From IMG/VR virus record IMGVR_UViG_3300011560_000001, positions 96,001 through 160,000 of that record: a stretch of 64,000 nucleotides of DNA. One strand, 5' to 3'. Position 1 is the stretch's first letter. Each line of letters opens with the position of its first letter. Below, piece after piece: positions 15,465 to 56,515 of the stretch. The notes under the pieces were generated by a model, which did no database searches, was not told where the DNA came from, and saw nothing but the letters and a program-made list of their open reading frames with translations. The position numbers and the translations under genes were made by a program. The stretch comes from a virus. Its lineage: Duplodnaviria > Caudoviricetes.

Positions 15465-17047
15465 TAAGGCTTCATTGTAAACAGAATTAAGGCTATATTA
15501 CGAAAGTGTAGTTAGTTTCACTGCACAAGAGGAATATAGTCAATGAGTGAGAAGGTATTTAAGACCGTAACGGAATTCCCATTCCTGGAGATATCCATAG
15601 ATGGAACATTGCGTAACAAGGAATCGAAGTTTGAATACTTGCCCATCATCATTGCTGGATATTATCGTTATTCGTTTCGAGGTCATGATGGAACACTGGT
15701 TTACCGTTCCATGCATAGACTTCTAATGTTAACGTTCCGGAACATCGATGATGCGCATTTGCTCCATGTGAACCACAAGGACGGCAACAGACTTAATAAC
15801 TACCTTGATCCCGACGGTAACACCGAGAATGACAATCTTGAATGGGTTACGCAGAAAGAGAACAACCAGCATGCTCGCATTATGAACATGCGTAAACGTT
15901 CAATTGCTGCCTACGGTAAACCTATTCAGGTTCGTGATGTTGATACCGGTGTTGTAACCAGATATCCATCCATGACGGAAGCGGCACGCGATCTTGGTGT
16001 GAATATCGACTTCATTCATCATCGTGTCTATAGAGGCAAACAGCGAGCGTTTCCTGAACGTAAGCAGTACCGCAAAGATTACGGCGATGAACCGTGGCGT
16101 ATTCCTACCAAATACGAGTTAGCAACGTTGACGGATACGGGAAGTAAGGGTGTGATTGCAAGGTCAACGATAACAAAAGAGATTCATCTTTTCGAATCAT
16201 TGACTGAATTCGCGAATCACATTGGTGTTAAGTTATCCACTGCGTCGATGTACGTTAACGACAAGAACCAACCTGTCGTTAATGGTTGTTATCAAGTTAA
16301 GTGGGTTACTGATGAGACGCCATGGCGAGAAGTCGAAGATAGTATCCTGGAGTTGGAGAAGACAACCAACAAACGTGCTATTGTCGTCATTCCTGAAAAT
16401 GATGTACCTCTGTTGTACCTTTCGGCCGTCGATTGCGCTGAAGAAATGGGTATATCTACCACGTTACTCAATTACCGTTTGAAGTCCGATGGGATGACTA
16501 AATTTCCTGATGGAAAACGCTATATTTACTATTCTGTTTACAAAGAGCGGGTCCGTTTATACGGTGACGTATGGACGAGATTCATTGAATTGCGGGGACG
16601 CCCAATGCTGCCTTCAGCCAAAGCGGAAACGGAAACGTTAGACGTGCGAGAAGCGAGACGTATTGCTCGTAAAGCAGGCTTTAAAAATGAAGAGTTGACC
16701 GCGACAAAAGTTCGTGGTCCGCAGGCCAAGGGTAATCCGCAGCCAATCGCCTAAGGATCGTTGTGAAACGTTCTAGGGTGACGGTTCAACGACTAAGGGA
16801 TTCATCCCCCTGTACCCCTCGAGTGAGGCATTCTCCTTGGATAAGAGAATGGCGCTGGATGCGCTGGGAAGAAGTGAACTCTCGTTGAGGTGCTGAAGAA
16901 GCACCGTTTGAAACGAGATGTGATATAGTCTGCTCTTGCGTGAGAACGTAAGCGGGAGGTGATGCGCCTATCATCACCTCCGGGATAAGGCTAACGACCT
17001 TATCTGAACAATCCAGACGCACAGTAATTGTATTTTGCTGGATTTCG
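15465..17047 (+). mobile_element. Group I self-splicing intron (1583 nt) in the vRNAP beta gene, carrying a homing endonuclease
   Basis: Exon ends in U, intron starts TAA and ends in G; core elements P aattgcgggga (~16588), Q aatccgcagc (16734), R gttcaacgacta (16784), S gatatagtc (16922); splicing restores DRDD|PKRLVFIG in frame. Confidence 0.9.
15543..16754 (+). CDS. Intron-encoded HNH homing endonuclease with three C-terminal HTH (NUMOD1/IENR1-like) repeats
   Basis: HRL...HVNHKDGNRLNN...NLEWVTQKENNQHA HNH signature; repeats YPSMTEAARDLGV, FESLTEFANHIGV, YLSAVDCAEEMGI; SD gagga. Confidence 0.9.
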   Translation: MSEKVFKTVTEFPFLEISIDGTLRNKESKFEYLPIIIAGYYRYSFRGHDGTLVYRSMHRLLMLTFRNIDDAHLLHVNHKDGNRLNNYLDPDGNTENDNLEWVTQKENNQHARIMNMRKRSIAAYGKPIQVRDVDTGVVTRYPSMTEAARDLGVNIDFIHHRVYRGKQRAFPERKQYRKDYGDEPWRIPTKYELATLTDTGSKGVIARSTITKEIHLFESLTEFANHIGVKLSTASMYVNDKNQPVVNGCYQVKWVTDETPWREVEDSILELEKTTNKRAIVVIPENDVPLLYLSAVDCAEEMGISTTLLNYRLKSDGMTKFPDGKRYIYYSVYKERVRLYGDVWTRFIELRGRPMLPSAKAETETLDVREARRIARKAGFKNEELTATKVRGPQAKGNPQPIA

Positions 17048-52326: not shown

Positions 52327-54222
52327 ATGGGCTTAGACGTACGTAATAACGGTAACGATAATGTAGAAATTCGTGCAGCTGAAACCCGCACCGCACAACG
52401 TGCTGATGAGGCGCTGGAAACCGCTGCAGATTTTGCCGACCGTCCTAAAGTAACTCATACGATGCGTACGATCAACCGTACACTGAGCCGTCGTATCAGC
52501 CGTAATACCGGCTCCGAGCAGGTACTGAATCTCCGTCGTCTGATGGAGAAATATCTGGAAGATACCCAGTTCAAAGACGACTTCATCTTTGTTGCGGTTG
52601 ACCCGAACCAGTACAGCGTACCGTATCCGACCCTGGTTGTTATGAGCGGTGCAAAAGTAGGTGATCATAACCACTTCTTCGGTTACGTCCTGCCGCTGGT
52701 TGCTGGTCTGGCTCCGCTGCCGCGTCGTGAAGAACAAGGTCCGCATGGTAACATTCTGGTACCGCGTACCTGGGTTGATAACCTGAACGGTACGTTCATC
52801 AACGAAGTCATGGCGGCAATGTATTCAGCTATTGGTGGTAAGTCTAACGGTACTGTTCGTATCGCTGGTCTGGCTGTGGTGACCAATGAAATCACCGCTG
52901 AATCCGCGCATCTGGCAACCACCCTGCTGTCTGCTGCAGATAACGCAATCCAAACCGCGATCGAAATCCGTCTCGGTGATAAACTGGGTCTGCCGCAGTT
53001 CAACCTGGGCATGATGGCAAGCGATCAGCCAATCAGCAGCGTTCAGTACAACACCAGCGGTATGCAGGACAGCGATATTGTTGGTAACCCTGTGCGTTCT
53101 GACATCACTGTAACTATCTCTAACCGCATCCGTCAAGCGATGAGCGATTACGATAGTCAACAGCGTCTGGTCGCCACCACCGGTTACATTGACCTGACCT
53201 ACAGCCCGCAGAACCCGACCTTCAACCAAGGCCCTGTTCTGGTTAACGGCTATCCGGTACCGCCGACTGTACAATACCAGCCGCGTTACGTGATGACCAG
53301 CGCTTACCCGCTGGAGCTGGATGCGTTCACACCGAACAGCTTCGTGCTGGGTCTGATTGGTACCATCGCTACACTGAACAGCGGTATGGCGTGGGCACAG
53401 TCTTTAATCAGCAACGCTGCTCGTGGCATCGGTCCTCATAACCCGGGTGCTCTGGCGATGGTACTGGATCCGGAAGTTACCGCACCGCTGGATCTGTCTA
53501 CTCAAACCAACGAGCAGATTTACAAGTTCCTGCAACAGGTACTGTATCCGTCTCTGCTGATTTCTATCGATGTACCGGAAGAAGGTGAATATAGCTGGTT
53601 GCTGCGTATGATCCCTGCAGCTGAGAAGATCTTTACGGGCAACGTTGACGGTAAAGTTCAAGAAATCTCCGAAGGCTATAAAGCACTCTATCGTGCATTC
53701 GATGATACTACCCTGGGTTGCTTCAGCAAGAAATATCAATACGGCCAACCGTTAGTGTACGCTACCGGTAACCGTATCCCGCTGGGTCACTACAACCACC
53801 AGGATGGCCACCGTCACGATATTCGTGATATGGACGATCTGTACATGATGAACATCACTAACCCGGATACCGTAGAAGCTTGGGAAGACAGCTTCGACCG
53901 TACCGATATGTCGATGTCTCAGCGTGTTGTCGCTCGTCACGAAATCATCGATCGTGTTCTGTCTGGTAGCTGGGAACAAACCGGCTGGGCAATGCGTTAC
54001 GATTTCGAACCGAATGCGCTTGCGGCATTGATTGAAGCGGCTGCCGAAGCTGGCTTCACCATCCGTCCTGAGAACATCCAGCATCTGGCAGGTACCGCTG
54101 TTCGTGGTAACGCAGCAGCACGTGCTCGTGGTCTGGGTAACATCTCCGGCAACATCTATGCACGTAGCGATCGTCCGAATGTTGGCGGTAACAACATGGG
54201 TGGGGCATTCAACCTGTTCTAA
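52327..54222 (+). CDS. chmA: Chimallin, major phage nuclear shell protein
   Basis: 631 aa, MGLDVRNNGNDNVEIRAAE...GGAFNLF, recognised as Goslar-type ChmA; canonical position before nvRNAP beta'; highly expressed codon bias. Confidence 0.93.
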   Translation: MGLDVRNNGNDNVEIRAAETRTAQRADEALETAADFADRPKVTHTMRTINRTLSRRISRNTGSEQVLNLRRLMEKYLEDTQFKDDFIFVAVDPNQYSVPYPTLVVMSGAKVGDHNHFFGYVLPLVAGLAPLPRREEQGPHGNILVPRTWVDNLNGTFINEVMAAMYSAIGGKSNGTVRIAGLAVVTNEITAESAHLATTLLSAADNAIQTAIEIRLGDKLGLPQFNLGMMASDQPISSVQYNTSGMQDSDIVGNPVRSDITVTISNRIRQAMSDYDSQQRLVATTGYIDLTYSPQNPTFNQGPVLVNGYPVPPTVQYQPRYVMTSAYPLELDAFTPNSFVLGLIGTIATLNSGMAWAQSLISNAARGIGPHNPGALAMVLDPEVTAPLDLSTQTNEQIYKFLQQVLYPSLLISIDVPEEGEYSWLLRMIPAAEKIFTGNVDGKVQEISEGYKALYRAFDDTTLGCFSKKYQYGQPLVYATGNRIPLGHYNHQDGHRHDIRDMDDLYMMNITNPDTVEAWEDSFDRTDMSMSQRVVARHEIIDRVLSGSWEQTGWAMRYDFEPNALAALIEAAAEAGFTIRPENIQHLAGTAVRGNAAARARGLGNISGNIYARSDRPNVGGNNMGGAFNLF

Positions 54223-54314: not shown

Positions 54315-55565
54315 ATGGCCATCATGCTCGATATCGTGAGTTTCGATAGACAGCTCGCAGAACTTCCCTTTACGCCGATTTTGTTGAACGATTACGATAC
54401 AAAAGTCGTCGAAGAGAAGAAGAAATTAAACAGTTTTATCACCCGTGTTTACTCCAGCGATACGTTGGATATCACGCCACAATGTGGGTGCGGTTTCTAC
54501 AATCGTGGTGAGCTGCTCGGCACGGTGTGTCCAAACTGTAAAACGGTTGTGACCTACCCAGCAGAACAGGAGATTCGTTCGACGGTCTGGGCGCGTGTTC
54601 CTGAAGGAATCGATGCGTTCATTAACCCGTTGGTCCATCTCGTGCTGGCAAGCGAGTTGAATATCAAAAGCTTCGAAACGATGACGTGGCTCATTGATGC
54701 CAGTTACCGTCCAAATGTAAAACGACCCATTGAACTCAAGAACTATCTGGAGCAGCAATTTGATGTATTCGGGATACGGCGTGGCGTAAATAGCTTTATA
54801 CAGAACTTCGATCGCATCATGGAGATCTTGTATAAAGGACCTACGTTACGTGGACCGAAGAACACAGAGAAAGTTGACACGCTACGAGAATTCATCCGTA
54901 TCCATCGTGATAAGTTCTTCAGTCAGTACATCAGCTTTCCTGCAGCCATGATGTTCGTTATCGAGAATACGCCAACCGGTCGTTATGCGGATAGCAAAAT
55001 GGAAGGTGCGATCGATGCTATCGGTACGTTGAATAGTATCTATCACCCAACAACACCTTTGAGCGCCAGAAAGAAAGAAAACTGGATGGCGAAAGTGCAA
55101 TTGAAGCTGCTGCAATACCACGCGGCGATTTTCGATGAGTTCATCGGTAAGAAGAAAGGTATTACACGTAAAAACATATTAGGTACATTACATCCATTCA
55201 CCACGCGTACCGTAATCAGTTCGATAACAGCGAACCATCGTTATTATCATCTGCATTTCCCATACGCACCATTTACTTTAACCAATAAAGAACATATCCA
55301 ATCCAAGTTATTCCATCGCGGTTATTCACCGAGAGCAGCACGTGCGTTCGTTGCGGAACATGTCCGTAATTATCATCCGATGATGAGCGAGCTGCACGAT
55401 GAGCTTATTGCTGATACACCGTTCGATGGGATTGTGTGTGGCTTTGTTCGAAACCCATCACTTGACCGAAGCAGTAACCAATGTCTTGAAATCACCAAGG
55501 TTAAACGCGATCCGCAGGATAACACCATCGGGTTAAGCGTGATGATCCTTAAGGGATACAACGCT
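54315..55565 (+). CDS. Non-virion RNA polymerase beta' subunit (phiKZ gp55-like), exon 1
   Basis: Zn-binding CGCG...CPNC, KKKGITRKNILG, RNPSL motifs; ends ...KGYNA just before the expected DFDGD. Confidence 0.9.
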
Positions 55566-55915
55566 TCAAATGAGGCCCTGCCTTCCGAAAGGAAGAGCTT
55601 GAATTCCGTGAATTGCTGAGACGGGCTAAAGCCACTCTGCCCTTGTGGGAGCCGATAAGGCGGAAATAAGTGAGTGGATGTTGGGAGGCTTCAACGACAG
55701 TCCTGAACCAGGATGCCACCCCAACGTACAATGTTCAATCAGCAGCCTAGCCGCCGATTATCGGTGGAAGGTTCAACGATCATGTCCCTCGAATTCGCTG
55801 AGGGTAGCGCGGAACACCCTTCGTGGGTGATGAGATGATCTCTCCGTCCTGGTAACACCAGGAGCTGCAGGTAATGCTGCGGGTATGGAGTAGCGAACCA
55901 TACTGAAGATACGTG
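55566..55915 (+). mobile_element. ORF-less group I intron A (350 nt)
   Basis: P1 gct|tca..tgaggc with U.G at the splice site; P3 ttccgtg/cgcggaa; P aattgctg, Q aatcagcag, R gttcaacgatca, S gagatgatc; terminal G before gac ttt gac. Confidence 0.88.
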
Positions 55916-55933
55916 GACTTTGACGGTGATGCC
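55916..55933 (+). CDS. nvRNAP beta' micro-exon 2 (18 nt) encoding DFDGDA
   Basis: gac ttt gac ggt gat gcc between two intron cores; joining gives NADFDGDAMNNHIVP, with the same spacing as bacterial NADFDGDQMAVHVP. Confidence 0.8.
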
Positions 55934-56290
55934 AGAGCCATGGCCTTATCTCCTGAAAAGGAGAATATGCATTCCGTGAATTGCTGGAATAGGCTAAAGC
56001 CGTTACGCCTCGTAAGAGGAACCGATAAGGTAGAAACAAGGTAACGGATGTACGCGGCTTCAATGAAAATCCCTTTAATGGGACGCCTACCGTACGTAAC
56101 AATGTCCAATCAGCAGCGAAGCTCCGTTTAGGAGAACGTTCAACGAGTAAGCGGTCTCAAGCGAGATCCAGCGCGGAAGTCCTACGTTCCATTTGGAATA
56201 TGGACATGATATACTCTCAACATCCTGGTAACACCAGGAGCTGCAGGTAATGCTGCGGATACGAAGTAGCGATTCGTATTGAAGATATTG
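55934..56290 (+). mobile_element. ORF-less group I intron B (357 nt), sister of intron A
   Basis: Same core: attccgtgaattgctg, aatcagcagc, R gttcaacgagta, S gatatactc, P3 partner cgcggaa; 36-nt identity with intron A; terminal G before atg aac aac. Confidence 0.85.
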
Positions 56291-56515
56291 ATGAACAACC
56301 ATATCGTCCCAGACATTTGGACTGCGAAACATTTCGGGAGATTCCGACCCGAACTCGGTATGATGGATAATAACGTACCTTTTAAGGTATCTAAGAAATG
56401 TGAACATCAGTCACCGGTTATTTCTACCATTGACTGTTGGTTCAACGAATTCGTGGAGGGCGATGACGTAGAACCTTATCTTGACGAAATAGAAGCAACT
56501 AACAACCATTGCTAA
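56291..56515 (+). CDS. nvRNAP beta' subunit, exon 3
   Basis: MNNHIVPD... continues the catalytic loop; spliced product is 497 aa. Confidence 0.8.
   Translation: MNNHIVPDIWTAKHFGRFRPELGMMDNNVPFKVSKKCEHQSPVISTIDCWFNEFVEGDDVEPYLDEIEATNNHC

Follow-up and report, generated by a model that had tools for sequence, protein, structure and literature searches.

A C-G pair predicted at the 5' splice site of a group I intron in the non-virion RNA polymerase gene of a Goslar-like jumbo phage

Two related group I introns, A and B, break the NADFDGD codons of the non-virion RNA polymerase (nvRNAP) gene in a Goslar-like jumbo phage of Escherichia coli, flanking an exon of 18 nt. Comparison of intron B with its relatives makes it highly probable that it is a functional group I intron with its productive 5' splice site after C55933, this C forming a C-G pair with G55942. 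Judged from the assemblies compared here, the C-G pair is a fixed trait of a widespread phage lineage, and a sister lineage retains U at the same position. The predicted intron B site would add to a rare variant first reported in 1995.

The window, a stretch of 64,000 nt, comes from a virus record of 237.5 kb with a completeness estimate of 99%, and its phage shares 94% identity with Escherichia phage Goslar across the nvRNAP gene. The split gene is a homologue of PhiKZ gp55, the beta' N-terminal subunit of nvRNAP. Exon 1 matches PDB 7ogp_A (PHIKZ055) with a phmmer E-value of 4e-60 in an alignment that stops exactly at ...NA, and both homology to this solved subunit and the NADFDGD catalytic motif identify the product as nvRNAP beta'. 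A chimallin ORF (52327-54222) adjoins the gene, as in PhiKZ and Goslar. The reading frame breaks at 55565, the DFDGDA codons are isolated at 55916-55933 and MNNHIVP... restarts at 56291, giving the following arrangement:

54315-55565, + strand: exon 1, nvRNAP beta' N-terminal subunit, ending ...KGYNA with gcU55565 (ORF list, phmmer)
55566-55915, + strand: intron A, group I, GCU/UC with GAGGC, terminal G55915 (Rfam RF00028, alignment A2)
55916-55933, + strand: exon 2, 18-nt micro-exon gac ttt gac ggt gat gcc = DFDGDA, catalytic Asp triad (sequence, intron-less alleles, PhiKZ)
55934-56290, + strand: intron B, group I, 'W-type', terminal G56290 (Rfam RF00028, RNAalifold consensus, pair counts)
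56291-56515, + strand: exon 3, MNNHIVPDIW... to the stop codon; Goslar gp185 is the equivalent exon, and PhiKZ chain residues 443-495 correspond (ORF list)

Exon 1 aligns up to residue 436 of 7ogp_A (...NA), and the match to exons 2-3 starts at residue 437 (DFDGD...). The title of that chain names both PHIKZ055 and PHIKZ056.1, two annotated genes joined in one product, and the PhiKZ homologue may also be interrupted near its DFDGD motif. We considered a second gene copy that would make intron B dispensable, but a genome search finds the nvRNAP beta' gene as a single copy. A 43-aa ORF spanning the exon 2/intron B boundary has no relatives in a protein search.

Bases 55928-55945 read gatgccagagccatggcc. 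The first-pass annotation had placed a C-G pair at the splice position of the intron B P1, and this is borne out: C55933 faces G55942 in a helix homologous to the P1 of U-G sister introns. Its description of intron A as canonical is likewise correct (gcu/ucaaaugaggc, with U55565 opposite G), and the pairing it proposed between the CAU 5' of the guide G and the exon-3 AUG, as P10, is verified as complementarity between 55939-55941 and 56291-56293. The elements that would define the intron B 5' splice site are:

55931-55934, + strand: P1 5' strand of intron B, G-C-C/A, with the putative 5' splice site C55933/A55934 (alignment A2 columns 13-16)
55941-55944, + strand: internal guide sequence, P1 3' strand UGGC, with G55942 opposite C55933 (alignment, structure)
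55939-55941, + strand: P10 guide CAU, complement of the exon-3 start AUG at 56291-56293 (sequence)

All 6 nt of the guide CAUGGC are complementary to the ligated exons GCC-AUG, and the calculated energy of the ligated-exon/guide duplex is -7.9 kcal/mol for intron B versus -3.9 kcal/mol for the Goslar type. The P1 hairpin of intron B, which contains no U-G pair at all, has an energy of -4.6 kcal/mol with C and -2.3 kcal/mol for the same hairpin with U (intron A, -4.4; Goslar, -2.1), a strengthening of P1 by C55933 of ~2.3 kcal/mol. GCC and GCU are both alanine codons, and selection at the protein level therefore does not explain C55933.

Taken by itself, a hairpin of 4 bp could be a chance occurrence. 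The intron B P1 is, however, a 14-nt hairpin with the same length and distance to P2 as in two sister intron types, and this positional homology, a compensatory base-pair change next to the splice site and the pairing of the structure as a whole place it beyond chance. The comparison uses the locus as collected from Goslar, one more IMG/VR contig, eight metagenome contigs and ~19 NCBI/ENA/Logan contigs, from which alignment A2 was made with 24 distinct sequences: 8 W-type (like intron B of the window), 6 G-type (like the Goslar intron) and 10 of the intron-A type. The RNAalifold consensus puts P1 at columns 13-16/23-26. Column 15 is C in 8/8 W-type sequences (12 assemblies) and U in 16/16 G-type and A-type sequences, making pair 15-24 a CG in the former 8 and a UG in the latter 16. 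At the adjoining pair 16-23, both bases have changed in a compensatory manner, with UA in 16 sequences and AU in 8.

With the P3/P7 pseudoknot counted in, the group I structure comprises 90 pairs in 19 helices that are 99.5% paired across the 24 sequences, compared with 36-44% for slid partners. Compensatory changes occur in 32 of the 90 pairs and in 1-3 for the slid controls. The intron family has the core helices P3-P8 in P3/P7 pseudoknot topology, and a terminal G (omega-G) lies right before the 3' exon in 24/24 sequences (G56290 in intron B). Pairing of a guide sequence with the end of the 5' exon is also present in intron B (GCCA/UGGC); what is absent is the usual splice-site U at position -1, replaced by a C paired with G. 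The remaining helices of intron B are placed as follows:

55948-55966, + strand: P2 (consensus structure)
55972-55978/56172-56178, + strand: P3 (consensus structure)
55982-55987/56110-56115, + strand: P4 (consensus structure)
55988-55991, + strand: J4/5, AAUA (consensus structure)
56116-56139, + strand: P6 (consensus structure)
56145-56149/56212-56216, + strand: P7 (pair counts, pseudoknot)
56153-56168, + strand: P7.1 (consensus structure)
56179-56205, + strand: P8 (consensus structure)
56223-56239, 56241-56258 and 56259-56279, + strand: P9, P9.1 and P9.2 (consensus structure)

Introns A and B are 70-79% identical to one another, and both match Rfam RF00028 (Intron_gpI) specifically, with scores under its gathering threshold of 50 bits. 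Intron A reaches 26.4 bits (E=2e-4) and intron B 28.0 bits (E=6.6e-5) in a local search, and intron B 31.5 bits in the genome search; long P5 and P7.1 insertions depress the scores. A search with a P9/P9.1 sequence pattern gave no matches. Elsewhere in the window, a further group I intron lies at 16529-16952 (Rfam, 51.4 bits), and a 403-aa endonuclease-like ORF (15543-16754) extends into its ribozyme core, the whole region being 15543-16952. A sub-threshold intron match of 47 bits is found at G000 1028-1548.

The position of the splice junction can be predicted from alleles that have no intron at this site. Five of these (L006-L008, L012 and L031) read gac gcg atg or gac gca atg, encoding DFDGDAM, and a sixth (L030) reads gac gct atg with no intron at DA/M; intron A occurs alone in L006-L008. 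The solved PhiKZ gp55 chain aligns without gaps as DFDGDQL (DFDGDAMNNH versus DFDGDQLNLT). The intron-less alleles and PhiKZ thus require exactly one residue between the last Asp and the Met or Leu, which points to the junction C55933/A56291, in agreement with the earlier argument that cleavage after C55933 gives the correct D-x-M spacing. Alternatives with 0 or 2 residues, and a cryptic site at U55927, are excluded as productive by the same spacing. The C55933/A56291 junction is predicted to be the only one that yields a working enzyme; the predicted spliced product is NADFDGDAMNNH, and the predicted stretch spanning the junction is GACGGTGATGCC-ATGAACAACC. On the sequence evidence, the structural reading of the first-pass annotation (site after C55933, C-G pair, P10 of CAU with AUG, product DFDGD-A-M) is supported.

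We also considered boundaries shifted by one base (...GC / G-AUG), with GCG in the product as in intron-less alleles, and rejected them, since they would leave U rather than G as the last base of the intron. An intron-less GCC-ATG allele, as expected from precise loss of a W-type intron, was not found in the scan. The GCT of L030 (Logan SRR19373524 contig) is otherwise seen only beside a G-type intron, and is compatible with either precise loss of a G-type intron or a homing site prior to invasion.

The cryptic site deserves attention because it looks canonical:

55925-55927, + strand: cryptic 5' site GGU, which can pair with GCC 55943-55945 through a U-G wobble (suboptimal fold, Rfam)

Cleavage after U55927 would give DFDG-MNNH. 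The U55927-G55943 wobble lies six bases upstream, its hairpin is iso-energetic with the homology-based P1 (-14.6 kcal/mol) and the Rfam model aligns the conserved splice-site U to U55927. This register breaks the homology of the 14-nt P1, however, and GGU is not conserved in the exons of G-type genomes (GGG in L009-L011). The product would lose the third catalytic Asp together with the Ala, a dead enzyme encoded by a single-copy gene, and it contradicts both the DFDGDAM alleles and PhiKZ. We therefore consider it very unlikely as the productive site, although cleavage at U55927 may occur as a mis-splicing by-product. The cryptic site would mislead automatic annotation: the covariance model picks this wrong U, which would remove a catalytic Asp.

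A second way of placing U at position -1 is cleavage after U55930 (gaU/), joined either at 56291 or after G56284. The in-frame products are DFDGD-M and DFDGD-ILM, respectively, and the translations given earlier for these junctions are reproduced as stated. Here the first 60 bases of the intron offer no guide that pairs with GAU and puts a G opposite U55930, the spacing of 0 or 2 residues conflicts with the intron-less alleles and PhiKZ and in all members of the family the intron stops at the final G preceding the exon rather than at the position of G56284. Its probability is minimal. C-to-U RNA editing was also considered; nothing comparable is known from phages.

With the site after C55933, splicing can be pictured as follows. 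The last three bases of exon 2 and the first intron base (GCC/A) would pair with UGGC to form P1, a local 14-nt hairpin just upstream of P2, and exogenous guanosine bound in P7 would attack the C55933-A55934 bond. A56291 of exon 3 would then displace A55934 from U55941, with AUG pairing to CAU 55939-55941 as P10, such that the CAUGGC guide could keep the two exon ends together in a single uninterrupted helix of 6 bp. Entry of the terminal G56290 into the G site would allow the 3'-OH of C55933 to attack the 3' splice site, and the product would be ...GAU GCC/AUG AAC..., encoding NADFDGD-A-MNNH, the active-site motif of nvRNAP beta'. We infer both the chemistry at the C55933-A55934 bond and its rate.

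A homologous intron occupies the same insertion site (DGDA/M) in Goslar and in five other contigs. In Goslar (NC_048170) it lies between gp186 and gp185 and is not annotated as an intron. Like intron B, this G-type intron has a 14-nt P1 hairpin, a GGC guide and a P10 of CAU with AUG, and the P3-P8 core of intron B is 90-100% identical to it. Unlike intron B, it has U at -1: the site reads gcU/UAAUCAUAGGC, in which alignment pair 15-24 is U-G and pair 16-23, an A-U in the window, is U-A. The Goslar guide also has an additional A between CAU and GGC that the intron B guide lacks. Identity between the two introns falls to 6/12 in the P1-guide region, 15/26 in P2 and 1/4 in the 5' strand of J4/5 (GAAG in Goslar versus AAUA). 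The elements that diverge most between the W-type and G-type introns are P1-P2 and J4/5. Solved group I structures show such elements forming or docking the splice-site helix, with J4/5 docking the wobble pair, and the contacts that J4/5 adenosines make to this pair have been summarised (PMC1891724). The divergence of P1, P2 and J4/5 in W-type introns, seen in a single lineage, may reflect co-adaptation to the C-G pair.

The window by itself is one metagenome-derived record, and a C at this position could in principle stem from faulty sequencing or assembly, or be a defect that arose recently in a dead genome. The sequence gatgcc/agagccatggcc is, however, shared by the window, by 10 long contigs from different samples (L016-L025) and by a shorter one (L026). 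Among these 12 independent assemblies (NCBI, ENA and Logan), the stretch 55928-55958 is identical, even though L016-L025 differ from the window by 9-20 substitutions elsewhere in the 781-nt region. The retention of compensatory changes in the ribozyme core argues against a dead genome, and we regard error or decay as virtually precluded. C-G is the sole haplotype among the 12 sampled assemblies with this exon-1 protein or a near variant, and the exact exon-1 protein of the C-G haplotype is on record in 84 contigs; an exact-pattern scan of IMG/VR with the W-type P1 sequence returned only the window's own record. Since all C-bearing genomes belong to one lineage, the C is counted as a single evolutionary event.

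A separate question is whether a C-G pair permits efficient splicing. As in the proposal of the first-pass annotation that splicing is slow or helper-dependent and thereby rate-limiting, intron B may be too slow on its own and depend on a protein helper, such as an RNA chaperone or a maturase-like protein, or it may act as a regulatory bottleneck for nvRNAP; we consider this possible, although on balance doubtful. Because such a proposal concerns the rate and not the position of the site, it is compatible with cleavage after C55933. Hur and Waring reportedly found in 1995 that a natural C-G intron was cleaved faster and needed less Mg2+ once its C was replaced by U, which favors slowness. By analogy, the ~80-fold faster undocking of P1 observed for C(-1)-G22 in the Tetrahymena ribozyme (PMC1891724) makes slowness plausible for intron B as well. 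Against it, neither intron A nor intron B contains a maturase ORF (ORF list), and the presence of the C-G haplotype in all 12 assemblies argues against a heavy fitness cost. The gain of ~2.3 kcal/mol in P1 and the perfect match of the guide to the ligated exons may also offset the wobble contacts that are lost.

It is conceivable, though rather unlikely in our estimation, that the C-G pair is adaptive. Two sister ribozymes with a GGC guide lie 368 nt apart around the 18-nt exon, and a change from GCU to GCC could insulate the downstream site from the sister ribozyme that has the same guide and reads GCU. If so, the C would shield the downstream site from the upstream or free sister ribozyme and protect the mRNA from mis-splicing, exon skipping or renewed cleavage, and the core of intron B would have been co-adapted to accept a Watson-Crick pair. 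The rebuilt P1-P2, the full guide-exon complementarity and the different J4/5 fit such an adaptation. GCU at both Ala codons (NA, 55563-55565; DA, 55931-55933) is seen in 0/7 haplotypes, too few for significance; in intron-A genomes the second Ala codon is GCC, GCG or GCA, and in G-type genomes the first is GCC or GCA. The adaptive proposal thus draws its hints from the lack of a double-GCU haplotype and from the concentration of divergence from the U-bearing sister in P1, P2 and J4/5.

The site of intron B is one of several in a hot spot. In Goslar-like phages, at least five group I insertion sites fall within ~30 nt encoding G-Y-N-A-D-F-D-G-D-A-M: G/Y (phase 1), NA/DF, NAD/F, DF (phase 2) and DA/M (window 55540-56300, L004, L005, L006, L012, L030 and L031). 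Up to three introns are present simultaneously, separated by micro-exons of 11-18 nt, and some contain HNH/NUMOD endonuclease ORFs (Goslar, L012 and L031-L034), the rest being ORF-less. The family is mosaic: P2 of intron A matches the Goslar type (25/26) and its P9-P9.1 the W type (35/35), and the W type has the P3-P8 core in common with the Goslar type. The P9.2 variant of intron A in L018 is that of intron B in the window (A2 columns 313-380; window 55847-55915 and 56223-56290), and introns A and B of L020 carry one common P9.2 variant. Introns A and B thus seem to trade sequence within a genome, in a pattern suggestive of gene conversion between the tandem sisters.

In the Goslar RefSeq record (NC_048170; L001 1516-4804), the gene appears as two separate proteins: exon 1 is called 'RNA polymerase beta subunit' (gp247) and exon 3 'hypothetical protein' (gp185). 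The label Intron_gpI is given there to the HNH-containing intron alone, and the G-type intron and the 13-nt exon between the two introns are unannotated.

Few features of group I introns are as conserved as the U-G wobble at the 5' splice site, on which textbook models of splice-site recognition are built. A synonymous U/C contrast at one site between sister lineages is a natural experiment on the worth of this wobble in vivo, for which P1 stability, P10 continuity and the J4/5 changes are candidate compensations. The putative exception sits in an essential gene, and since the E. coli phage Goslar can be cultivated, these ideas are directly testable.

Natural C-G 5' splice sites were reportedly described by Hur and Waring in 1995 in two fungal mitochondrial introns, and the title of that report, listed among the references of PMC6468297, raises the question of protein-level selection. 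As predicted for intron B, a C before the 5' splice site pairs with the guide G of the usual U-G wobble in those introns. Intron B differs in residing in a protein-coding gene of a bacteriophage rather than in fungal mitochondria, and in offering for comparison a synonymous C/U change and a U-bearing sister at the same site. In the literature searched, no account of introns in the nvRNAP beta' gene of Goslar-like phages turned up.

According to reviews, the U-G pair is strictly required (PMC6155759, PMC4227781). The 'YNN/NNG' rule for Anabaena circular RNA (PMC12355055) was set aside as evidence on position -1 because it concerns position -3. Group B IStrons, such as BcISt1 of Bacillus cereus, splice after G and not U (PMC4227781). 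They are, as intron B would be, a natural exception to the U before the 5' splice site, but they retain a U-G pair shifted by one base pair, whereas the P1 of intron B has none.

For the clustering of introns, the closest parallels are other phages. Landthaler and Shub are said to have reported, in 1999, a gene of Staphylococcus phage Twort with several group I introns. PhiPA3 has an intron with an HNH endonuclease in an RNAP gene (Birkholz et al. 2024; PMC11620839). Goslar-like phages resemble these systems in having group I introns at catalytic-site codons of essential genes, some with HNH ORFs, and in the presence of related introns within one gene. They differ in the density of the arrangement, with at least five insertion sites in ~30 nt and exons of 11-18 nt, and in having one intron without the U-G pair.
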